From Nitrososphaeria archaeon (GTDB lineage: Archaea > Thermoproteota > Nitrososphaeria > Nitrososphaerales > JACAEJ01), in assembly GCA_029775925.1 (NCBI GenBank), contig JARVKB010000008.1, forward strand, positions 3,394-67,393: a stretch of 64,000 nucleotides of DNA, read 5' to 3'. The position numbers and the translations under genes are program-made. Shown here piece after piece: positions 12,377-61,849 of this stretch. A model generated the notes under the pieces. It saw only the letters and a list, made by a program, of their open reading frames with translations, did not search any database and had not been told where the DNA came from. Positions within the stretch are counted from its first letter, which is position 1, and the number at the start of each line of letters is the position of its first letter.

Positions 12377-15300
12377 TTGAGGATAAAGGATTTACCTATA
12401 CCTGAAAAATTAATACGACTTATAGAATCACTTGGTTACTTTAATCTTTATCCGCCTCAAGAAGAGGCTGTAAAAGCAGGAGTATTGGAAGGCCAGAATT
12501 TACTCCTAACAACACCAACTGCCAGTGGAAAGACTCTTGTAGCTATGCTAGCGGCTGGAAAGATAGTCCTAGAAGGGCTAGGAAAAGTTGTCTATCTTAC
12601 TCCATTAAGGGCTCTTGCAAATGAGAAGTATAATGATTTTAAGGCTTTTGAAAATTTAATTAAACCTAATGGTAATCATGTAAAAGTTCTCATCTCAACA
12701 GGAGATTATGACTCATCAGGAGAATCCTTAGGATTAGGTGATATACTTATTCTTACAAATGAAAAGTTCGATTCTGTCCTTCGTCATGGTGTATCTTGGA
12801 TAGACTCTGTGAAACTCTTCGTTACTGATGAAATTCATATTGTTGGTGATGATGACAGAGGACCAACCCTTGAGATGACTGTAACTAAAATTCTTTCTTA
12901 CGCTAATAATGCACAAGTCCTTGCCTTGAGTGCTACAGTAAAGAATTCAAAGGAATTGGCAGACTGGCTTGGAGCAAAACTTATAGACATAAAGTGGAGG
13001 CCTATAAAGTTAATTGAAGGGGTTTACCAGCATGGAGAGATAATTTTTTCTGATGATTCAAAAAGAAAAATAAAACCAACGAATAGAGGGCATGCTATAG
13101 ATGTAGCAATAGATGCAATTAACGAAGGAGGACAATCCCTTATATTTACAGAAACAAGGAAAATGGCAGTAAGTCTCGCCCTCAAGGCTTCAGAACTTAC
13201 CCAGCATCATTTAACAAAGGCTGAAGTTAAAAAGGCTAAAGAATTATCAATGAATATATTATCATCAGGGGAAGAGACAGAATTAAGCAGGACTTTATCT
13301 AAAGTAGTCGAGAAAGGGACGGCTTTCCATCATGCTGGGCTTACTGGAGCGCATAGATCGATAATAGAGGATGGATTCAAAAATGGCTTGATCAAAATCT
13401 TAACTGCAACCCCTACACTTGCAGCAGGGGTAAACCTTCCAGCGAGGAGGGTGGTGATAAGCAGCTTGATGAGGTACGATTCAGACTATGGAGGAAAGGC
13501 ACCTATCAGTGTATTAGAATATAAGCAAATGTGTCTACCCTATTGGACAAAAGTTCTGATAAGTGATGGGACAATGATGCCTATAGGCGAAATTGTAGAG
13601 AAGAAGGTAGCTGATAGAGTAATAACATTTGACAAAAGAAAAGAGAAGTTCGTATATGGGAGAATCATTGATTGGTTTTCAAGAGAAACTGATTGTCTAT
13701 TAGAAATAGAAACAAGCGGAGGATTAAAAATTCGTCTTACACCAGAGCACCCGATTCTAACTAAAGAGATAGGATGGATATCTGCAAAAAATGTGAAAAT
13801 AGGGGAGAGAGTGGGTTATGCAAGAGAATTTGAGTATATTCCAGATAAGAACCTTCTATTTTTCTTTAAGCATATACCAATTAACGGGACATACTTGAAA
13901 AATACGACAGATCTCTTCGATCTCGCAAAGCTAAAATTCACACGTAAAGAATTGGCTACTTTATTAGGTAAAGATCTAAAAGTGGTAAAGGAATATGTAA
14001 GGGGAAAGAAAGCAATACCACTTTCTGTCATATTGGCACTTTGTAAACTATTGAATCTTAGCGATAATGAAATCGCTGAAAGGCTGAAAGAAGTCAAAAC
14101 AGCTTATGGAACACCGCTAAAAATTCCAAAATACATAAACGAGGAATTTATGTGGCTACTAGGGTTTATTGCTTCATATGGTAATATTGAAGAAATTGTA
14201 GATAAAAGAACTAAATCAGTTTATCATAAAATCAGGGTCTTTAATAAAAATCCTAAAATTATTGATAAAACCATTGATATCTTACATTCTCTGGGTCTCT
14301 TTCCCTACGTTCGTAAAAAAGACAATTACACATCGGTTGAAGTTGGCTCTACGTTATTGGCTAATTTAATGAGAAAATTTGGAATTCCATTCGGAACAAA
14401 GGATAAATTAAGGGTTGCAGAAACCATTTTTTCTTTCCCTCCAAATTTGATTGGTGCCTACTTGATGGGCGTATTTGACGGCGATGGAAATTATATAGAA
14501 TTAAAATCTAAATCAACTATAAGAAGGATAGTAATCTCAACAGCAAGTGAAGAATTCGCTTACGATCTTCATAATTTACTGATAAGGTTAGGAATAGTTT
14601 CTTATATTAAGAAAACACAACCTAAGCCTGCGCTTATTAGAAGTAAAAGAGCCGAATTTAAAAAGCCAGTTTACAACATTATCTTTAGGAAGATAAGAGA
14701 TATAAAAAAATTCACTTCCTATGGGACTCCAGTTAAATATAACATACCTTTCATTGATTACAGCAAATATCATAATCTGAACAAATACCATACTATCATC
14801 GAGCCTGTAGAGTGGCTAAAAGTGAAATACATTAAGATAATCAATGAAAAAACAAAGGTTTATAACATATCGGTAGAAGACACGGAGAATTACATAGCTG
14901 AAAATTTTATTGTCCATAATTGCGGGAGAGCTGGTAGACCAAAATATGACGATATCGGAGAGACAGTGATAATAGCACATAATCAATATGAAGCTGATGA
15001 AATTTTATATAACTACATAAAAGGTGAACCAGAACCAATTAGCTCAAAATTGCATGATGAATCTGCTTTAAGGATTCATCTTTTAGCGACTATTGCAAGC
15101 CTTCCTGGTATTACAGATGTTGAGATCCTTAAACTTCTTTCTAAATCTCTTTTAGCCATTCAGTATAGACATGCTGCCATTCAATCAAAAGTCAATAAAG
15201 TAATAAATTATCTTTTAGGTGAAGGTTTGATAGAAAGAAGAGGGAAGCGTTACATTGCCAGCGAATTTGGAAAAAGAGTCTCCACTCTTTACATTGACCC

Positions 15301-15955
15301 ATTAACAGGAGTAATATTTAAAAGAGCAATAAACCTTGCAAAGAAAAATAACCCTCATTTGTTAGGCTTTCTCCACCTAATAGTCTCTTCTCCAGACTTC
15401 TCACCAAAATTTCCATTAAGGAGTAGAGACATAGATGAAGCTCAAAGGCTTTTTGATCAAAATAAGGATGAATTTATATTACCTTTGCATAAGAATGATA
15501 TTTATGAAGATTATTTTAAAGATTTTAGGAGTCTTCTCGTCCTTTATGGTTGGATAAATGAATGGAGTGAAGATAAAATACTTGATAAATTGGGGGTAGA
15601 ACCAGGAGACTTACACAGAGCTGTAGAAACTTCTGAATGGCTCGTCCACTCCTTATTTGAGCTATCTAAGTTGCTAGGAAGAGTAGATCTTTTACCTGAG
15701 ATTGCACAGCTGGAGCAAAGAGTAAAGCAAGGAATAAAACCTGAACTCATACCTTTGGCAAAGTTGGAAGGAATAGGGAGAGTAAGGGCTAGATCCTTAT
15801 ACAATCATGGCTTTACAGATCTTGACAAATTGGCATCGGCATCTATTGATAAAATAGCCTCAATACCAAAAATAGGTATTATAATGGCTAAGAGTATTAA
15901 GAAGCAGCTACAAGAGAGAAATAAATTTAAGTATAAACTAAATCACATCGATTAA
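12377..15955 (+). CDS. hel308: Hel308/Hjm-type Ski2-like DNA helicase, interrupted by an intein
   Basis: TTG start gives MRIKDLPIPEKL...LYPPQ (Q motif). Motifs TPTASGKT (Walker A), DEIH and SAT are present. Motif VI QM/CGRAGRP is split by a 463-aa insert. A C-terminal winged-helix/HhH region is present. Confidence 0.9.
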   Translation: MRIKDLPIPEKLIRLIESLGYFNLYPPQEEAVKAGVLEGQNLLLTTPTASGKTLVAMLAAGKIVLEGLGKVVYLTPLRALANEKYNDFKAFENLIKPNGNHVKVLISTGDYDSSGESLGLGDILILTNEKFDSVLRHGVSWIDSVKLFVTDEIHIVGDDDRGPTLEMTVTKILSYANNAQVLALSATVKNSKELADWLGAKLIDIKWRPIKLIEGVYQHGEIIFSDDSKRKIKPTNRGHAIDVAIDAINEGGQSLIFTETRKMAVSLALKASELTQHHLTKAEVKKAKELSMNILSSGEETELSRTLSKVVEKGTAFHHAGLTGAHRSIIEDGFKNGLIKILTATPTLAAGVNLPARRVVISSLMRYDSDYGGKAPISVLEYKQMCLPYWTKVLISDGTMMPIGEIVEKKVADRVITFDKRKEKFVYGRIIDWFSRETDCLLEIETSGGLKIRLTPEHPILTKEIGWISAKNVKIGERVGYAREFEYIPDKNLLFFFKHIPINGTYLKNTTDLFDLAKLKFTRKELATLLGKDLKVVKEYVRGKKAIPLSVILALCKLLNLSDNEIAERLKEVKTAYGTPLKIPKYINEEFMWLLGFIASYGNIEEIVDKRTKSVYHKIRVFNKNPKIIDKTIDILHSLGLFPYVRKKDNYTSVEVGSTLLANLMRKFGIPFGTKDKLRVAETIFSFPPNLIGAYLMGVFDGDGNYIELKSKSTIRRIVISTASEEFAYDLHNLLIRLGIVSYIKKTQPKPALIRSKRAEFKKPVYNIIFRKIRDIKKFTSYGTPVKYNIPFIDYSKYHNLNKYHTIIEPVEWLKVKYIKIINEKTKVYNISVEDTENYIAENFIVHNCGRAGRPKYDDIGETVIIAHNQYEADEILYNYIKGEPEPISSKLHDESALRIHLLATIASLPGITDVEILKLLSKSLLAIQYRHAAIQSKVNKVINYLLGEGLIERRGKRYIASEFGKRVSTLYIDPLTGVIFKRAINLAKKNNPHLLGFLHLIVSSPDFSPKFPLRSRDIDEAQRLFDQNKDEFILPLHKNDIYEDYFKDFRSLLVLYGWINEWSEDKILDKLGVEPGDLHRAVETSEWLVHSLFELSKLLGRVDLLPEIAQLEQRVKQGIKPELIPLAKLEGIGRVRARSLYNHGFTDLDKLASASIDKIASIPKIGIIMAKSIKKQLQERNKFKYKLNHID
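13532..14920 (+). mobile_element. Intein (463 aa) with a LAGLIDADG homing-endonuclease domain, inserted in helicase motif VI
   Basis: Starts with Cys (CLPYWTKVLISDG), has TPEHPIL block B and LAGLIDADG blocks LLGFIASYGN and YLMGVFDGDGNY, and ends ...NFIVHN followed by a +1 Cys. Excision restores EYKQM-CGRAGRP. Confidence 0.85.
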
Positions 15956-17272: not shown

Positions 17273-17968
17273 TTATATGGATGGAGGTGGAGGAGGTGGT
17301 GGAGGTACTGGCTGCCCCAAAGAAAGGTAAAGGTATACTGCTGAAACTATGAAAATGACATCGAAGATCCAGCTTATTATAGCCCCTATGTAAGCACCGA
17401 CAACTGGTATTAACGAGAAACCAAGCCCTAAGATTAGGGCGATAACTATCACAATTATTACAAAAATAATCACTTCCCCTAAATTCTTTATGACAAAATC
17501 AAAAGACCTTTTTGTACTTTCTATAGCATCTTTCCCTTCTATAACGGCGATTACAACGATGAACAAAGCGAAAGGAATTAAGAAGAATATGAGGAAGAAT
17601 ATCGCTGAAATTATAGAAGCAATGAATAATGTACCTAATCTACCAGTCACGGCTTTCATACTTTTATTCATATTCATCGGTCGTCCGTTAATGATATCGT
17701 TAGTCATATCAACGATTATACAGAAAGCTATGAACCCTATGATAGATGCTATGAAATAACCTCCCCAGATAAGATACGGATTTGGAACTACTATCTCATA
17801 TATGAAAGGATAAAAGCCAAATTGATACCTAATTGGAAAAACTATGTATGCAAGAATAAGAAAGATCAAATGAACAATGATCGGTCCAAGAGCTGGGATG
17901 AACAAACCGAAGTTTTTGGTTGAGACGTTGAACCCTTTAGATATGGCTTCAGTCGCTTTTGAAGACAT
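17273..17968 (-). CDS. Polytopic membrane protein with a C-terminal poly-proline tail (...GQPVPPPPPPPPSI-stop)
   Basis: 231 aa with about 5-6 hydrophobic helices. Eight consecutive Pro codons lie at 17282-17305, then S, I and the stop. Confidence 0.7.
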   Translation of the reverse strand: MSSKATEAISKGFNVSTKNFGLFIPALGPIIVHLIFLILAYIVFPIRYQFGFYPFIYEIVVPNPYLIWGGYFIASIIGFIAFCIIVDMTNDIINGRPMNMNKSMKAVTGRLGTLFIASIISAIFFLIFFLIPFALFIVVIAVIEGKDAIESTKRSFDFVIKNLGEVIIFVIIVIVIALILGLGFSLIPVVGAYIGAIISWIFDVIFIVSAVYLYLSLGQPVPPPPPPPPSI

Positions 17969-23390: not shown

Positions 23391-23798
23391 ATGAAGCTAA
23401 ATCCTATAGGAATAATAGGTGGCATCGTTCTAATAATTTCTCCCTTCCTTCCGTGGGTCAGCGTCTTGTTCTTCAATTTAAGTCTACTAGATCTTCTTTC
23501 ATTTAGCACGTTAATCGGCGATGCTACTTACTACATTATCCTGATCATTCTAACCTTATTGGTATTGGGTGGTATTATAGCTCTTTTTAAAGGATTAATA
23601 GGAGGTATAATAGGCCTTGTTGGCGTGCTTATTTTTACTATCTTAATATTGGTTGGTGGACAAACCTTTGCTGTAACTGCTTATCTCGGTATAGGTTATT
23701 ATCTAGCATGGATAGGTGCTATCTTGAGCATAATTTCTATTGTTTGGAAAAGGCTTACGCCCGCTCCTTCCATACCTCCGCCGCCTCCGCCAACTTAA
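23391..23798 (+). CDS. Small polytopic membrane protein with a C-terminal tail APSIPPPPPPT-stop
   Basis: 135 aa, almost entirely hydrophobic (about 4 TM). Six Pro codons lie at 23775-23792. It is a paralog of the next gene. Confidence 0.7.
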   Translation: MKLNPIGIIGGIVLIISPFLPWVSVLFFNLSLLDLLSFSTLIGDATYYIILIILTLLVLGGIIALFKGLIGGIIGLVGVLIFTILILVGGQTFAVTAYLGIGYYLAWIGAILSIISIVWKRLTPAPSIPPPPPPT

Positions 23799-23907
23799 AC
23801 TTAACAATTTCATCTAATTTATTTATCCATTAGGAAAATTAGAAAGTTAAGTTAACAAAAAGCTTTATAAGTTAATGCTAAATCGTTTTCATTGGAGAGA
23901 AAAATAA

Positions 23908-24477
23908 TTGAAAATAAATTATATTGGTATTTTTGGAGGTATATTGGCATTCGTCAGCTTAGCTTTAGCATGGTGGACAATGTCCCTTTCGGTCACAGGA
24001 ATGGGAATGACTATAGGTGGCGAAGTTTCAATATACCCCTATCAAGCGAAGGCATCGATGATGGGGTTGTCGGAGGCGATCCCTATGGATATGTGGTTCG
24101 GTTGGGCAGTTTTCGCTCTTATCCTCGTAGGTGGTTTACTGGGGATAATAGGTAGTATCACAAAATATGGCGGAAAGTTGCTTATTATTGGTGGAGTACT
24201 CGCTTTTCTTTCAATAATAATCTTTGTAGTGGGTTTGCAGATGGGGTTATCGGATCTACAGAGACAACTTTTGGAATTCGGTATGTCCCCGACAGGGTTA
24301 GGTTTATTCTCTAGCGGAACTATGAATTTAGGTTATGGAGTAATTGCAAACTATTCAACTTATCTATCTTTTGGCTTTTGGTTAGCACTAATAGCAGCGG
24401 TCTTAATGTTTGTTGCTGCCTTAAGAAAGGTGGAAGTTGCCCCTTCTATACCTCCACCACCCCCTCCTCCTACCTAA
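23908..24477 (+). CDS. Small polytopic membrane protein with a C-terminal tail APSIPPPPPPPT-stop
   Basis: TTG start gives MKINYIGIFGGI, parallel to MKLNPIGIIGGI of the upstream paralog. 189 aa, about 4 TM. Seven Pro codons lie at 24451-24471. Confidence 0.7.
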   Translation: MKINYIGIFGGILAFVSLALAWWTMSLSVTGMGMTIGGEVSIYPYQAKASMMGLSEAIPMDMWFGWAVFALILVGGLLGIIGSITKYGGKLLIIGGVLAFLSIIIFVVGLQMGLSDLQRQLLEFGMSPTGLGLFSSGTMNLGYGVIANYSTYLSFGFWLALIAAVLMFVAALRKVEVAPSIPPPPPPPT

Positions 24478-41545: not shown

Positions 41546-41935
41546 ATGGCTGAAAAACCAACAGCTGCATTCATTTTATCTCTAATCGGGGCTATACTCA
41601 TCATTCTCGATGGCTTATGGGTGGCCATTGCTTTTTCTATCCTTGGTGGCATTAGTTTTATGTTGCCAGGACTTGAGTTGCTAGGTGGTCTCTTTTTAAT
41701 TATAGGCGTCGTAGCCATCGTGCTAGGAGTACTTACCCTTGTAGGCGCTTTTATGATGAACACTTCAAATAAAAATAAAGTTAAAACAGGTGCGATTCTT
41801 GTACTTATCTTCTCTATAATAAGTCTAATCGTAGGTGGAGGTTTTATCATCGGCTTCATTTTATGCTTAGTGGGCAGTATATTGGGACTTACATGGAAGC
41901 CTACAGAAGCCCCGCCCCCGCCGCCTCCTTCCTAA
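41546..41935 (+). CDS. Small polytopic membrane protein with a C-terminal tail TEAPPPPPPS-stop
   Basis: 129 aa with about 4 hydrophobic helices. Six Pro codons lie at 41912-41929, then S and the stop. Confidence 0.7.
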   Translation: MAEKPTAAFILSLIGAILIILDGLWVAIAFSILGGISFMLPGLELLGGLFLIIGVVAIVLGVLTLVGAFMMNTSNKNKVKTGAILVLIFSIISLIVGGGFIIGFILCLVGSILGLTWKPTEAPPPPPPS

Positions 41936-42244: not shown

Positions 42245-43639
42245 GTGGGTAAAAATATGGGCTTCCAACCAGGAAACTATTATTTAATGGATGTAGATGG
42301 AGAAGTAAGCTCCATAGATAACGCAAAGGTAAAGGATCAAAACCTTCAAGCATTGATCGATACTGAAGTTTATAAAAAAAGCGTTGCAAAGAAAGCTCCA
42401 CATATAGAGTTGATGAAAAAACTCAAATTAGCTGAATACGAAGAATTATCTGATCCTGGGCATATAAGACTAACCCCGAAAGGGGCATTAATCTTTGACT
42501 TGCTGGCTGATAGAGCTTTACAAATAGCTTTAGAATTAGGAGCGAATCCTATTAAAACGCCGATTCTTTACGATCTTAACATTAAGCCTGTGAGTGAACA
42601 TGCTAAGCTTTTTGGTCAAAGAATGTATAAGGTAAAAAGCGGTAAGAGAATTTTTGCTTTAAGGTATGCCGCTTGTTTCGGACAGTTCTCTTTTCTTTCA
42701 GATTCAATTTTGTCTTATCGCGACTTGCCTCTCAAAATATTTGAACTGGCTGATAGTTACAGGTTTGAACAAAGAGGAGAGTTGGTAGGGCTTGCAAGGT
42801 TAAGAAAGTTTCATATGCCAGACATACATGTATTATGCCGTAATCTAGAAGAAGCTAAAGTTGAGTTTGAGAAAATTTACAAAAGATGTTTTGAGGAAGG
42901 GAGAAGGTTTGGCTGGGATTATGTAAGCCTTTATAACGTTAGTAAGGATTTCATCGACGATCCTAAAGGATTGGATTATATTAAATCTTTAGTGAAGATG
43001 GAAGGAAATCAAGTCTTGATACGCATTGTTGAATCAGGCATATATTATTGGATTCTTAATATTGAATTTAACTTTGTCAGTCAACAAAAGCGCATCATAG
43101 AAAGCTCGACCGCTCAAATAGATGTTGGAAACGCTGAAAGATTCAACATATCCTATATTGATGAAGATGGTAAGGAGAAAAGACCTATAATAATCCATAC
43201 AGCAGTAATAGGATCTTTAGAAAGATTCATAGCAAATTTATTAGAAAAAGCATCGAGTCAAGAAGTTCCTTCTTTACCAACATGGATTAGTCCAGTTCAA
43301 GTCAGATTCATAAATGTAGACAACGATTCTTTAGAATTTACGATAAAATTGGCTGAAAAGTTTAATGATAATAATATTAGGGCTGATGTTGACGATAGAA
43401 GTGAGAGTGTAGCGAAAAGAATAGCTAACGCTGAAATAGAATGGATACCATATATAGTAGTTATTGGAAAGAAAGAAGTTAATGAAGGAAAATTACCAGT
43501 TAGGATAAGGTCTTTAAGGAGAAAAATGGATATGAATGATGAAGAGTTATTAAAGAGAATTAAGGATGAAACTAAAGGCTGGCCATACCGTCCTTTATAC
43601 TTTAATAAGCTCTTATCAAAAAGACCAAGATTCATTTAA
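42245..43639 (+). CDS. thrS: Threonyl-tRNA synthetase, catalytic form without an N-terminal editing domain (ThrRS-cat type)
   Basis: Class II motif 2 context YRFEQRGELVGLARLRKFHMPDIHVLC, motif 3 region, and a C-terminal anticodon-binding domain. It has only 464 aa. Start is GTG 42245 or ATG 42257. Confidence 0.8.
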   Translation: MGKNMGFQPGNYYLMDVDGEVSSIDNAKVKDQNLQALIDTEVYKKSVAKKAPHIELMKKLKLAEYEELSDPGHIRLTPKGALIFDLLADRALQIALELGANPIKTPILYDLNIKPVSEHAKLFGQRMYKVKSGKRIFALRYAACFGQFSFLSDSILSYRDLPLKIFELADSYRFEQRGELVGLARLRKFHMPDIHVLCRNLEEAKVEFEKIYKRCFEEGRRFGWDYVSLYNVSKDFIDDPKGLDYIKSLVKMEGNQVLIRIVESGIYYWILNIEFNFVSQQKRIIESSTAQIDVGNAERFNISYIDEDGKEKRPIIIHTAVIGSLERFIANLLEKASSQEVPSLPTWISPVQVRFINVDNDSLEFTIKLAEKFNDNNIRADVDDRSESVAKRIANAEIEWIPYIVVIGKKEVNEGKLPVRIRSLRRKMDMNDEELLKRIKDETKGWPYRPLYFNKLLSKRPRFI

Positions 43640-43644
43640 GACTT

Positions 43645-44523
43645 TTATCGCTTTTTTGATAAATATGATAAACATATTAATTCACTCATAAGCTTAGCAG
43701 CCACTACTGCTGTATTACCATTATCATAAAGAGGTGTAAGCTCTGTTATATCGAATCCTACTATCCTCTTTCCTTTTAGCATATAAAGGAACTCAAAGAG
43801 TTTATGTATAGATAAACCATCAGGTTCAGGGTTGCCCACTCCTGGAGCGAAGGAAGGATCTAATACGTCTAAATCAATGCTAACATAAACATCTTCAAAT
43901 TCCTTAAGAAATTCTGCTAGTAGTTTTTCAGAATTTGAGATAGTGTGTATTGTTTGCATAGAAATTAAAGATAATTTCATCTTATCAGCAATCTTCCATT
44001 CCTCTTTACTAGCCGCTCTAGAACCTACATGGATTATAGATTCTGTTCCTATTTTATCTGTTAAGCGCTTAAGAAAAGTTGCATGACTTAACTTTAATCC
44101 AGCAAATTCATCTCTCAAGTCTAGATGGGCATCAAATATTACTAACGCAGTATCTTTAACTGAAGAGTATGTACCAAAAGTTATTGTGTGTTCTCCACCA
44201 AGAACGCCAAAGGTAGTTCTTTCTTCAACCATCTCTTTTACAACTTTTCCTAATGAGTAGATCATATCTTCTACGTTATTAGTCAATTTTAAGTTTCCAA
44301 GGTCTAATACGCTCAAAGATTCAAGATCAACATCTAAAAAAGGAGAGTAAACCTCAATATTCATGTAAGCTTGACGTATTGCATTCGGACCGAATCTTGC
44401 TCCAGGTCTAAAAGTTACTGTTGAATCAAAAGGAACACCGAAGATATTTGCAACAGGCTTTACTCCTTCTTTTATAAGAGTTATTAAAGGTTCAGGCGTT
44501 AGAAAAAGGTCCTTGTAGCTCAA
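43645..44523 (-). CDS. speB: Agmatinase (ureohydrolase family)
   Basis: Mn-ligand motifs GGEHTIT, DAHLDL and SIDLDVLDP. TTG at 44523 lies 2 nt after the dys stop and gives a normal-length 292-aa protein. The track ATG at 44628 would overlap dys by 103 nt. Confidence 0.85.
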   Translation of the reverse strand: MSYKDLFLTPEPLITLIKEGVKPVANIFGVPFDSTVTFRPGARFGPNAIRQAYMNIEVYSPFLDVDLESLSVLDLGNLKLTNNVEDMIYSLGKVVKEMVEERTTFGVLGGEHTITFGTYSSVKDTALVIFDAHLDLRDEFAGLKLSHATFLKRLTDKIGTESIIHVGSRAASKEEWKIADKMKLSLISMQTIHTISNSEKLLAEFLKEFEDVYVSIDLDVLDPSFAPGVGNPEPDGLSIHKLFEFLYMLKGKRIVGFDITELTPLYDNGNTAVVAAKLMSELICLSYLSKKR

Positions 44524-44525
44524 AT

Positions 44526-45491
44526 TTAGCTTAACCTTTCCAATAAAGAAGCTACTATCATAGGGAAGGCTAGTGTAACCTCGCTCACCACTACGACCTT
44601 TCTTGCATCTGCTTTTATCTTCCCCCAAGACACTGCCTCGTCCAAAGTTGCTCCAGATAATCCTCCAGTTTCTGGCCGATCAAGAGTTATCTGTATTACA
44701 TAGTTCAGCTTCTTCTTCTCAAAGTAAAAGGATTGGAATACATAGTTTTTAGGTACCCCGCCTCCAAGAATTACCGCTCCTACATTATCATGCTCCTCTC
44801 TTATAGACCAGATTTCTTGAAGATCCATAAATGCATCGACACACAAAACTTCTTTATTCTCTTTGTTATGTATCGCTGCTTGAAGACCATAAACAGAATC
44901 TTGAATAGCAGGGGCAAATACCTTTACATTGTTTAAATATGCTGATCTTAATATAGAATCACTGTTTGGTAAACGCTTAGCTATCTCCATAAGAAAATCA
45001 TTAATAGAAAGGATTTCTCCTTTTCTATCTTTAACTATATCCTTATAAATTTTAAGAATAGGGTTGTCAAATTTTTCTTCAAATTCCTTCTCATAGACGA
45101 AAACATCATAGATTCTATCTATCCCTTTCTTGTATAGCTCTTTATCATCTAATTGGAGAGAGAATTTCCGATGTTTCCCACCAAAAGCCTCTAAGACATC
45201 ATGAACAAGATTTGCTCCAGTACTTACAATTGCATTCACCCAGCCTTTTTCTATTAAGGTAATTATGACCTTCTTCAATCCAGCTGGTACTAAAGCGCCA
45301 GATAAAGTTAGGAAGATGTAAGCCTTATCTCTGATCATACTCTCATAAATATCTACAGCCTTTGCTAGAGCTCCGGAAGATAAAGAACCAGAATTTTTCA
45401 TTTGGAGAATTAATTCATTTACTGTCATGCCCTTCCATACTCTAATCGGTTCGACTGGCTCGCCTATCGATTCATTAATTGCATTCTCCAT
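44526..45491 (-). CDS. dys: Deoxyhypusine synthase
   Basis: STGANLVHD, GGGVPKNY, and the active-site lysine context LDEAVSWGKI. 321 aa. Confidence 0.9.
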   Translation of the reverse strand: MENAINESIGEPVEPIRVWKGMTVNELILQMKNSGSLSSGALAKAVDIYESMIRDKAYIFLTLSGALVPAGLKKVIITLIEKGWVNAIVSTGANLVHDVLEAFGGKHRKFSLQLDDKELYKKGIDRIYDVFVYEKEFEEKFDNPILKIYKDIVKDRKGEILSINDFLMEIAKRLPNSDSILRSAYLNNVKVFAPAIQDSVYGLQAAIHNKENKEVLCVDAFMDLQEIWSIREEHDNVGAVILGGGVPKNYVFQSFYFEKKKLNYVIQITLDRPETGGLSGATLDEAVSWGKIKADARKVVVVSEVTLAFPMIVASLLERLS

Positions 45492-56207: not shown

Positions 56208-57533
56208 TTAAGTCACCATCCTCTTTAATAACTGTCGCATCTCCCTACCTTTTGATGCTTTCATGATGGCTTTAGACTGTCTATATTTCACAAGCATTTC
56301 CTTGACATCTTTTTCACTAGTGCCAGAGCCCATCGCTATTCTTTTAATTCTCGAAGAATTAAGAATCTCGGGGTTCTCTCTCTCATCCTTTGTCATCGAT
56401 TGAATTATGGCTTTCCATTTCTTCATCTTATTTTCTAATTCTTCTAATCCTTCCTTTGAGATTAGCGAGGATAGGCCTGGAATCAAATCTAGAATTTTTC
56501 TTAATGAACCCATCTTCTTCATTTGCTCGATCTGATAGTAAAGATCATCGATAGTCATCTTACCGGAAATTATCCTTTGAACCTTCTTCTCATCAGTCTC
56601 TATCTCTAGTTCTTTTGCCCTTTCTATAAGAGCTTTTATATCTCCTAGCCCTAAAAGTCTACCAACGAACCTTGTAGGAGAAAAAACTTCTAAATCATCA
56701 ACCCTCTCTCCCGTTCCTATAAATAGTATTTTCGCTCCTGTGGCTGCAGCAGCTGCTAATGCTCCGCCGCCTTTGGCTGCACCATCTAGCTTTGTTACTA
56801 TTATCCCTCCAACAGGCACTGCTTTATGGAAGGCTTCAGACTGAGCATAACACTGCTGTCCTATTGTTCCATCAATTACAAGTAATGTTAAATCGGGTTT
56901 TATCACATTCGATATTTGCTTCATCTCTTCTAGAAGACCTTTCTCTTCTTTATGTCTTCCTGCAGTATCTATGATAATGACATTCTTCTTGTCTCTAAAG
57001 TATTTTAAACCCTCGGTTGCAACTTTTATTGGATTGTCAAACTTTTCATCTCCAAAGACATCTATCCCTATATCTTTTGCGTAAGTTCTCAATTGAACAA
57101 GGGCGCCGGGTCTAAAAGTATCTGCACATATCAGCCCTACTTTGTATCCTCTTTTTTGGAGATATCTTGCAAGCTTTGCTGAAACTAAAGTCTTACCAGA
57201 ACCTTGAATTCCCATAAGCAATATTACATTGACTTTGTTAGTTGGGAGATCTAGCTTACTTTCAGTACCTAATATGTTCACCAATTCATCATATAGGATT
57301 TTTATTATGTGATCTTTTTTCGATAAGCCTGGTGGAGGATTCTCTTGAAGGGCTCTTTTTTCTATCTTAGAAGACAACTCAAATACCAATTTTACGTTGA
57401 CATCAGCTTGTAATAACGCTCTTTGGACATCTTTAACAAATTCTTTTATCAATTGTTCGTCCACATTGCTTGCTGACAAAATCCTCTTTATCGCTGCCTG
57501 CAATCCTTCCTTCAGTTTTTCTAAAATGCTCAT
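56208..57533 (-). CDS. srp54: Signal recognition particle protein SRP54
   Basis: N domain, G domain with [13 protein letters not shown] and TKLDG, and a Met-rich M domain. Confidence 0.95.
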
Positions 57534-61453: not shown

Positions 61454-61849
61454 TTGAGCAAGCCTGTCGATCTTGGTAGCTTAAAAGAAGGATCGTATAT
61501 AATTATTGATAATGAAGCCTGTAGGATAGTGTCCTATGATAAATCAAAACCAGGAAAACATGGTTCTGCAAAGGCGAGAGTCGTAGCTATAGGATTATTC
61601 GATAATGTAAAGAGGAGCATAGTAGCGCCTGTAGATAGCTTGGTTCAAGTTCCTATAGTAGAGAAAAGAGGTGGTCAGATAATCTCAATAATGCCTGATA
61701 GAGTTCAAATCATGGATCTTGAAACTTTTGAGGTTTTTGAAGCTCCGAAGCCTGAAGAGCCTGAGATTATAGAAAAATTATCTCCAGGAAATGAAGTAGA
61801 GTACTGGCGGGTTTTAGGAAAAAGTAAGATAATGCGAATAAAAGGCTAA
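61454..61849 (+). CDS. eif5a: Translation factor aIF5A (hypusine-containing)
   Basis: Hypusination loop [13 protein letters not shown]. 131 aa. TTG start preceded by ggag. Confidence 0.9.

Follow-up and report, generated by a model that had tools for sequence, protein, structure and literature searches.

Four small polytopic membrane proteins encoded in a 64-kb stretch of DNA from a Nitrososphaeria archaeon (35% GC; hereafter the window, i.e., the whole stretch analyzed) end in an uninterrupted run of six to eight prolines at the extreme carboxy terminus. Such tails are conserved, are specific to membrane proteins, and have arisen convergently, being shared in related archaea by no fewer than seven membrane-protein families without kinship to one another; in Bathyarchaeia, the genes that encode them cluster. 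The tail is read here, with a probability of roughly 45%, as a cytoplasmic polyproline-II docking handle or linker that would tie membrane modules to a soluble cytoplasmic module. The candidate for the latter is a small protein combining a PRC barrel with a zinc ribbon, which is encoded next to tailed membrane proteins in Bathyarchaeia.

Polyproline tails in the window and in related archaea

Proline runs were scanned in all six reading frames of the window. Runs of at least four prolines number only four in the entire stretch, each lying one or two residues upstream of a stop codon, and their bearers are the four membrane proteins designated P1, P2, P3, and P4 (Table 1). In the background of window genes (15,058 codons), proline accounts for 3.9% of the residues, and its doublets and triplets occur about as often as expected (PP, 21 observed versus 22.6; PPP, 1 versus 0.87). 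The four runs are thus not compositional, and chance is ruled out as their cause. Among the 62 window open reading frames (ORFs) of at least 70 aa, the tail is found in 4 of 9 polytopic membrane proteins and in 0 of 53 others (hypergeometric p ~2e-4). An assembly or frameshift artefact is likewise ruled out, since identical genes are present on 7-8 independent contigs from NCBI metagenome-assembled genomes (MAGs) and Logan assemblies, including contig JAVZCS010000003.1 of the hot-spring-type MAG GCA_038874295.1. The sole variant is a single in-frame codon: the run of P2 is length-polymorphic, and one close strain lacks one CCT codon, giving six prolines in an otherwise identical sequence. No additional proline runs occur in a 10-kb extension rightward of the window. 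The tails are confirmed as real and far above chance. The preliminary description of this stretch had reported the P1 and P2 ORFs, the TTG start of P2, the positions of their runs, the mixed use of proline codons, and two further tailed membrane proteins (P3 and P4), all of which are borne out by ORF translation, codon reading, and the six-frame scan.

Table 1. Tailed membrane protein genes of the window and their polyproline runs
Feature	Coordinates	Strand	Description
P1	23391..23798	+	135 aa, ATG start, four hydrophobic helices, short-loop paralogue of P2; C-terminal end WKRLTPAPSIPPPPPPT-stop
P1 polyproline run	23775..23792	+	six Pro codons CCT CCG CCG CCT CCG CCA, then ACT (Thr), TAA
P2	23908..24477	+	189 aa, TTG start, four transmembrane helices, predicted claudin/TARP-like fold; C-terminal end LRKVEVAPSIPPPPPPPT-stop
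P2 polyproline run	24451..24471	+	seven Pro codons CCT CCA CCA CCC CCT CCT CCT, then ACC (Thr), TAA
P3	17273..17968	-	231 aa, polytopic, weakly DUF7847-like; C-terminal end ...PVPPPPPPPPSI-stop / ...YLSLGQPVPPPPPPPPSI-stop
P3 polyproline run	17282..17305	-	eight Pro codons, then Ser, Ile, TAA
P4	41546..41935	+	129 aa, four transmembrane helices, DUF6114/DUF4064-like; C-terminal end ...EAPPPPPPS-stop / ...GSILGLTWKPTEAPPPPPPS-stop
P4 polyproline run	41912..41929	+	six Pro codons CCG CCC CCG CCG CCT CCT, then TCC (Ser), TAA

The tail is deeply conserved in the P4 family. Of 120 homologues at 50-83% identity, 107 carry a run of at least four prolines within their last 20 residues, and in 93 a run of at least five ends no more than 3 aa from the carboxy terminus. 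In an alignment of 41 diverse sequences, residues P125-P128 are at least 90% conserved, equal to the best transmembrane (TM) positions. The P4 run is present in thermophilic Nitrososphaeria, Bathyarchaeia, Aigarchaeota/Caldarchaeales, Geocrenenecus, and some Sulfolobales, while the members from Thermoplasmata have a proline-rich tail with no homopolymer. In the P1 family, the run persists in 20 of 30 homologues, at identities as low as ~53%. A run is found in 62 of 120 P2 homologues (at least five prolines ending within 3 aa of the carboxy terminus in 43), and members of this family that have none mostly possess proline-rich tails made of PT or PA repeats. The P3 family retains a run of five to seven prolines at or near the carboxy terminus in its closest orthologues only (53-69% identity); the run recurs in scattered distant members, and the tails of Bathyarchaeial members have 8-15 prolines. 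Retention of the tail by orthologues, a check proposed at the outset, is therefore observed for P4, P1, and P2, and for P3 in close relatives only.

The tail is also borne, in relatives, by RDD-family proteins (PF06271), by DUF996 proteins (PF06195), by a family with seven to eight TM helices and no Pfam match, and by others. All censuses cover anchored loci, ~2.4 Mb in total, and thus a biased sample. The set anchored on P4 comprises 80 loci (1.1 Mb) with 1,275 ORFs, in which a run of at least five prolines within 6 residues of the carboxy terminus occurs in 0 of 875 soluble proteins, 0 of 207 proteins with one or two TM helices, and 24 of 193 polytopic proteins. All 24 runs of at least five prolines in this set are C-terminal and none is internal; 22 belong to the anchors themselves and 2 to P3-like proteins adjoining the anchor. 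Equal frequency in soluble proteins, which would have made the signal unspecific, is thus found neither here nor among the 53 non-polytopic ORFs of the window.

Codon usage was analyzed in 91 distinct tails (682 codons), whose runs range from 5 to 15 prolines. Among their proline codons, CCC is depleted (0.11 versus 0.20) and CCG enriched (0.28 versus 0.22), adjacent identical codons are less frequent than expected (0.234 versus 0.279), and a run contains on average 3.2 distinct codons. This mix fits a proline run that is kept at the protein level while slippery C homopolymers are shunned. The proposal that the tails are under selection is accordingly upheld by conservation, mixed codons, and CCC depletion.

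Membrane cores and the side on which the tail lies

P1 and P2 resemble each other by BLASTP at the protein ends only. When the tails are trimmed, hhalign matches the two families with a probability of 92% (E 5e-7, 82 columns), and because this profile-profile match is significant, P1 and P2 are paralogues. The 30 homologues of P1 all stem from Nitrososphaeria-type MAGs, and the 158 homologues of P2 are mostly from Bathyarchaeia. In relatives that encode P1 at 58-65% identity, the gene order DUF5591-HAD-P1-aminotransferase is retained and P2 is absent, and the P1-P2 tandem is seen only in the close clade of the window and at locus L090. The description of the pair as tandem paralogues thus holds with respect to homology, but the tandem arrangement is recent and lineage-specific. 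The window tails of P1 and P2 encode the same APSI-Pn-T peptide with synonymous codon differences, and at L090 both tails read APP(I)L-Pn-T. This comparison, which covers two genomes, hints at concerted evolution of the P1 and P2 tails within one genome.

An AlphaFold2 model of P2 built from the family alignment (pLDDT 93.5) has four helices (residues 5-19, 63-84, 88-123, and 155-176) with both termini on the same side. Two long loops form a six-stranded sheet above the helix bundle, to which loop 1 contributes four strands and loop 2 two (23-31, 34-42, 47-51, 54-57, 135-142, and 145-153), and the tail is a coil past the last helix. A Foldseek search of this model against the PDB returns 42 matches with E<=1e-3, nearly all of them to the claudin superfamily, with claudin-19 as the best (3x29_A, E 1.7e-6) and TM-scores of 0.45-0.59. 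The matches include claudin-3, -4, -9, -15, and -19, TARP gamma-2, -5, -7, and -8, GSG1L, and DUOXA1. Loop 1 contains no cysteine and no W-GLW-C-C signature, a Pfam scan of P2 reports no claudin family, and the sole match of a P2 profile search against PDB sequences is TARP gamma-7 at a non-significant E of 0.2. Because the claudin sequence signature is absent, P2 is called claudin-like in predicted fold and not a claudin; a claudin/TARP-like fold is predicted for P2 and, by paralogy, for P1.

Once their tails are trimmed, P3 and P4 show no relationship to P1/P2 or to one another (hhalign probability <13%), which rules out a single superfamily behind all four proteins and agrees with the earlier observation that the tails sit on unrelated membrane proteins. 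P3 matches Pfam DUF7847 at 25.5 bits (E 9e-6), below the 28.7-bit cutoff, and is at best a distant relative of that family. P4 likewise scores below cutoff with DUF4064 (25.2 bits; cutoff 32.1) and DUF6114 (19.9 bits; cutoff 27.9). Among 41 members of the P4 family, 30 match DUF6114 and 14 match DUF4064 at E<=1e-3, and weak matches to both are also found in some P2 homologues. The AlphaFold2 model of P4, again based on the family alignment (pLDDT 89.5), shows four helices and a coil tail, and a Foldseek search with it yields nothing significant (best E 0.85).

The tail most likely faces the cytoplasm, as the preliminary description had supposed. The number of helices is even in all four proteins, with four in each of the P2 and P4 models, and a basic patch follows the last one. 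Lys and Arg are located at the amino terminus, in the short loop 2, and after helix 4, and the long sheet-forming loops of P2 are charge-poor. The corresponding loop-built sheet of claudins and TARPs lies outside the cell, and their amino and carboxy termini are both in the cytoplasm. Some homologues of the window proteins carry a zinc ribbon after the proline stretch. Finally, the C-terminal tail of the DUF4064 protein AuxB is intracellular, as demonstrated by cysteine accessibility, and recruits the cytosolic protein GpsB (PMC12505970).

Across the 80 P4-anchored loci, there is no conserved operon context or downstream gene. In the window, P1/P2 are followed by an aminotransferase gene and P4 by a gene for threonyl-tRNA synthetase (ThrRS; NF003068, 573 bits). 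The latter identification of the class-II aminoacyl-tRNA synthetase rules out a proline-sensing leader peptide for a downstream prolyl-tRNA synthetase (ProRS). The ThrRS (42245..43639, + strand, 464 aa) comprises the catalytic core only and matches model positions 155-612 of 613. The absence of the editing part from its amino terminus suggests that ThrRS and editing are split.

A PRC-barrel/zinc-ribbon neighbor in fused and split forms

Loci anchored on P2 (36, almost all from Bathyarchaeia) encode additional tailed proteins, every one of which lies within ~1.5 kb of the anchor. These are P3-like proteins, RDD-family proteins (E 3.5e-18), DUF996 proteins, and the seven- to eight-TM family mentioned above. 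A recurrent neighbor is a small soluble protein of 103-124 aa composed of a PRC barrel (PF05239, 23.2 bits; cutoff 21.2), a Gln/Pro-rich linker, and a ribbon of the form CPTC...YQRWYCYxCKKY. The sequence relatives of its barrel in the PDB are 1pm3, 8qzo, and 8onw, and its conserved ribbon segment, YxPQYQRWYCYxCKKY, is rich in aromatic residues. In loci L093, L102, L112, L117, L124, L092, and L126-L139 of Bathyarchaeia, the gene for the P2 homologue lies together with those for another tailed protein and for the PRC/ribbon protein between presumed hypE (product ending in ...PRIC) and presumed hypD-hypC-hypF, the hyp genes being assigned by their termini alone; this placement may point to hydrogenase maturation.

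The association was quantified in a second set of 80 loci (878 ORFs) anchored on the PRC/ribbon gene itself. Tailed proteins are found in 48 of these loci, where they account for 0 of 576 soluble proteins, 11 of 160 proteins with one or two TM helices, and 52 of 142 polytopic proteins. Relative to the PRC/ribbon gene, a tailed protein is encoded at position -1 in 33 of 67 cases, at -2 in 9 of 67, at -3 in 5 of 65, and at +1 in 4 of 68, as opposed to 1 of 323 at a distance of four or more genes. Adjacency of the two is thus strongly enriched (Fisher odds ratio 69, p 1.7e-16), with a divergent orientation in 39 of 47 pairs. When their tails are trimmed, the tailed partners sort into no fewer than seven unrelated families, a diversity that speaks against mere inheritance of synteny.

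The same ribbon is found at the end of 16 membrane proteins, in all of which (16/16) a run of five to ten prolines joins the last helix to the ribbon. A ribbon-bearing RDD member (L199 5728..6345) corresponds to a tailed RDD protein plus the ribbon. Similarly, the slot between the HypD and PRC/ribbon genes holds a P3-tail, a P5-tail, or a TM3-polyPro-ribbon protein, depending on the genome, and in Pelearchaeum (L289) the PRC/ribbon gene is followed by two genes for TM-polyPro-ribbon proteins. Two architectures therefore exist: a fused form, TM-polyPro-ribbon, and a split form, in which a TM-polyPro-stop protein is accompanied by a separate PRC-linker-ribbon protein. By Rosetta-stone logic, the coexistence of fused and split forms suggests that the free tail is the site at which the soluble PRC/ribbon protein docks.

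Several further observations concern the ribbon and its surroundings. The CPxC...YQRWYCY ribbon closes a 1194-aa five-TM protein in a Thermoplasmata MAG (L273 3903..7487) as well as the two tandem TM-polyPro-ribbon proteins of Pelearchaeum (L289 4140..5345). Because of its occurrence in these two groups, the ribbon module, which has no Pfam assignment, is broader than Bathyarchaeia. Homologues of P2, P1, and P3 (P0104, P0148, P0276, P0297, and P0312) have another ribbon, CxxC...CxxC, after a proline-rich stretch, with PF13240 recorded for P0104 and P0148; proline-rich linkers thus recur with more than one ribbon type. A Bathyarchaeial family of ~272-278 aa is encoded beside the PRC/ribbon gene (L154 258..1094, L168 3167..3985, L189 3437..4255, and L197 3300..4121) and is polyproline- or proline-rich at both ends (N-terminus, e.g., MTEESYPPPPPPPP; C-terminus, e.g., ...MLPPPPP-stop), with three to seven TM helices by crude hydropathy. 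In one PRC/ribbon subfamily (L171, L179-L204; ...LTWIPQYQRWYCYNDKKYV), the gene is always preceded by genes for a conserved ~173-aa soluble protein (MKIRILKLTPES...WVKGDIISYWEIPLQ) and an untailed four- to five-TM protein.

Proposed docking and its alternatives

In the proposed docking mechanism, the tail would form a rigid polyproline-II extension directly past the last TM helix and the short basic patch. Its carriers would be small polytopic proteins of a scaffold type: claudin-like P1 and P2, tetraspanin-clan-like P4, DUF7847-like P3, and, in relatives, RDD, DUF996, and other proteins. The soluble PRC/ribbon protein would bind the free tail non-covalently, with either the PRC barrel or the aromatic-rich ribbon as the docking surface. 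Docking accounts for the terminal cytoplasmic position of the tail, its convergence, the clustering of the tailed genes, the association with the PRC/ribbon gene, and the fusion forms. The docking function itself, the identity of the reader, and the extension to the organism of the window, where no adjacent reader gene is encoded, are all inferred.

Two known systems offer analogies. Claudins and TARPs have a short cytoplasmic C-terminal tail, the extreme end of which is a ligand for cytoplasmic scaffold proteins. P2 resembles them in its predicted four TM helices, same-side termini, and loop-built sheet, but differs in having neither significant sequence similarity nor the cysteine pair of loop 1, in ending in polyproline instead of a PDZ ligand, and in its archaeal host. 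AuxB of Staphylococcus aureus is a small four-TM protein whose family, DUF4064, belongs to the tetraspanin clan of Pfam and is weakly matched by P4 (as is DUF6114). Its tail motif SRQAKY recruits GpsB, and its membrane domain binds another membrane protein (PMC12505970). In contrast to the tails described here, the AuxB tail is long, basic, and not proline-rich, and GpsB is specific to Bacillota. As analogies, the AuxB-GpsB precedent and the coupling of claudin and TARP tails to scaffolds point the same way as docking.

With regard to the reader, eukaryotic polyproline-binding domains (profilin, SH3, WW, EVH1, GYF, and OCRE) dock runs that include terminal ones of at least six prolines and read them through aromatic clusters, to which the aromatic-rich ribbon may be likened; no homologues of these reader domains were identified. 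Polyproline binding in archaea is documented for a Heimdallarchaeal profilin (PMC8410842). For TACK archaea, the literature searched holds no report of it, and the candidate PRC-barrel/zinc-ribbon reader has no known proline binding. PRC barrels are shared with Haloferax CdpB1-3 and with the N-terminal domain of CdvA. Such proteins are proposed to recruit others in archaeal division, although the role of the CdvA barrel is unknown, and the survey of PRC-barrel proteins mentions neither proline nor zinc ribbons nor Bathyarchaeia (10.1101/2023.03.28.534520). Unlike CdpB and CdvA, the neighbor of the tailed genes has an extra C-terminal ribbon and is found in the context of membrane proteins and hyp genes, not division genes. 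The earlier suggestion of a polyproline-II ligand with a cytoplasmic reader thus gains indirect support from the adjacency and fusions of the PRC/ribbon protein and from AuxB, but the MIT, SH3, WW, and profilin readers it had named were not found, and the window encodes no reader gene.

Several observations weigh against docking. The near-invariable placement of the run at the extreme carboxy terminus exceeds what a simple ligand model requires. Shared ancestry of the loci inflates the significance of the adjacency between PRC/ribbon and tailed genes, and the association is seen in Bathyarchaeia only. Neither a PRC/ribbon gene nor a YQRWYC motif was detected by tblastn, motif regular expression, or hmmsearch --max in the window, its 10-kb extension, L090, or the P4-anchored loci. 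PRC/ribbon genes of Caldarchaeum and Nitrososphaerota, as well as homologues in Thermoproteota MAGs, have no tailed neighbors, and the same is true of two PRC/ribbon subfamilies (L137-L144, ...YQRWWCDRDKKYV; and that of L171 and L179-L204). Moreover, the P4 run is absent in Archaeoglobales, Micrarchaeota, some Caldarchaeum, and most Desulfurococcaceae, so the tail is dispensable for the core function of P4.

The best surviving alternative, itself unlikely, is that the tail is passive. It would be a spacer, a cap, or the leftover of a linker between the membrane domain and a since-lost zinc ribbon, now a harmless stub or a helix-ending, protease-resistant cap whose length drifts by slippage. 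The proline stretch is indeed the linker in the TM-polyPro-ribbon proteins and in the homologues with a PF13240 ribbon; its length varies from 5 to 15 residues and is polymorphic among close strains; and several lineages keep the core without the run, which in the P3 family is confined to close relatives. A neutral stub should decay, yet over several lineages of phylum or class rank P125-P128 of the P4 family equal the best TM positions in conservation, and the 120 listed P4 homologues include no ribbon-bearing member. Codon heterogeneity and the avoidance of CCC indicate active maintenance. A leftover would also fail to account for the clustering of tail-only genes with one another and with the PRC/ribbon gene, and the run recurs on at least seven unrelated families.

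A translational pause is less likely still. According to this proposal, which the preliminary description had also put forward, the six to eight proline codons before the stop would make synthesis or termination dependent on hypusinated aIF5A and thereby tie the output of these proteins, or the time that ribosomes spend at the membrane, to aIF5A or polyamine status. Consecutive prolines are the classic stall motif relieved by EF-P/IF5A (PMC6105217, PMC5811046). In Escherichia coli, they are found downstream of TM helices, as here, and have been proposed to aid insertion, although the enrichment is weak (1.39-fold) and located ~45 residues past the helix start (PMC5811046). The position of the runs, nearly always 0-3 residues from the stop, is accounted for by a pause, and CCG, at 6% rare among the background proline codons of the window, reaches 22% in the four window runs. 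The window also encodes aIF5A (61454..61849, + strand; NF003076, 188 bits) and an agmatinase (43645..44628, - strand; TIGR01230, 222 bits). The co-occurrence of these two genes, for the factor that resolves polyproline stalls and for an enzyme of polyamine metabolism, with that for the membrane-targeting GTPase SRP54 (56208..57533, - strand) touches on the same hypothesis and is probably coincidental.

A pause fits poorly with the proline-rich tails of many orthologues, which have no consecutive prolines (e.g., PTPTPVSPTPTPT and PPAPMAPGMAPP) and would stall weakly, and with runs of up to 15 prolines, well past what stalling needs. It also fits poorly with the additional N-terminal run of one family and with the internal run of the 16 fusion proteins, where ~30 residues follow to the end, and it leaves the link to the PRC/ribbon gene unexplained. 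At the point of stalling, the last TM helix would still be in the ribosomal tunnel, so a benefit for insertion is not obvious. In addition, a pause would have no conserved downstream gene as its regulatory target, and P4 is followed by the gene for ThrRS, not ProRS. The pause thus fits less well than docking, although the two models are not mutually exclusive. If it were true, these genomes would have in the tailed genes their strongest natural aIF5A-dependent reporters.

A regulatory arrest or leader peptide of the SecM, MifM, or RAPP type is a related candidate. MifM, for one, is small, resides in the membrane, and stalls through a sequence at its carboxy terminus. An arrest peptide controls one particular gene located downstream, whereas the proteins described here are conserved, folded membrane proteins; with no conserved gene downstream of P4 in the 80 loci, and with aminotransferase and ThrRS genes as the downstream neighbors in the window, this candidate does not fit.

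It is highly improbable that the tail is an outward, glycosylated Pro/Thr-rich stalk or a contact to the S-layer. In favor of a stalk, Pro/Thr-rich segments in surface proteins of archaea typically lie outside the cell and bear O-linked glycans, PTPTP tails occur in some P2 orthologues, and the tails finish in Thr or Ser; against this stand the charge distribution over the four helices and the charge-poor long loops of P2, the claudin/TARP-like fold match, the intracellular tail of AuxB (PMC12505970), the zinc ribbons past the proline stretch, and a tail length of just 10-15 residues. An archaeosortase or exosortase signal (PGF-CTERM, PEF-CTERM, or PEP-CTERM) is ruled out by the order of elements (TM helix, basic patch, proline run, stop), with no hydrophobic segment after the motif, and the earlier statement that no archaeal sorting signal is matched is sustained for these three.

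Returning to docking, the tail is a simple, sequence-recognizable, conserved, and membrane-protein-specific feature with a concrete candidate partner. Proline-rich docking motifs with dedicated readers are a hallmark of eukaryotic cell organization and are hardly documented in archaea beyond the Asgard profilins. In the literature searched, neither polyproline tails at the carboxy termini of archaeal membrane proteins nor claudin-like proteins from archaea are described, and no link between PRC-barrel/zinc-ribbon proteins and proline tails is reported, in agreement with the initial remark that the tail has no described function. If confirmed, docking would provide a first function for several large families so far without one (DUF6114/DUF4064-like, DUF7847-like, RDD, and DUF996) as well as a hint at the ligands of archaeal PRC barrels, and the predicted claudin-like folds would join archaeal biology. 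A bolder and rather doubtful extension is a membrane-recruitment code in TACK archaea, in which the polyproline-II rods of claudin-like, tetraspanin-like, RDD, and other scaffolds would be read by a PRC-barrel/zinc-ribbon adaptor. Such a code would reveal the first ligand class for archaeal PRC barrels, a domain that also occurs in the CdvA and CdpB division proteins, and would be a prokaryotic counterpart of eukaryotic tail-to-scaffold coupling (e.g., claudin-PDZ or proline-SH3/WW).

Two minor observations concern other genes. The window encodes a 1192-aa Hel308-type helicase (12377..15955, + strand; DEAD, Helicase_C, Helicase_dom4_arc, and HHH_5) that harbors an intein with a LAGLIDADG homing endonuclease at residues ~375-848. 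In the sister strain GCA_038870715.1 (L089, ~15.7-20.6 kb), genes for Cas1 and a family-B DNA polymerase with the appearance of a casposon lie downstream of a prenyltransferase gene, a position occupied in the genome of the window (L088) by an Lhr-type helicase.

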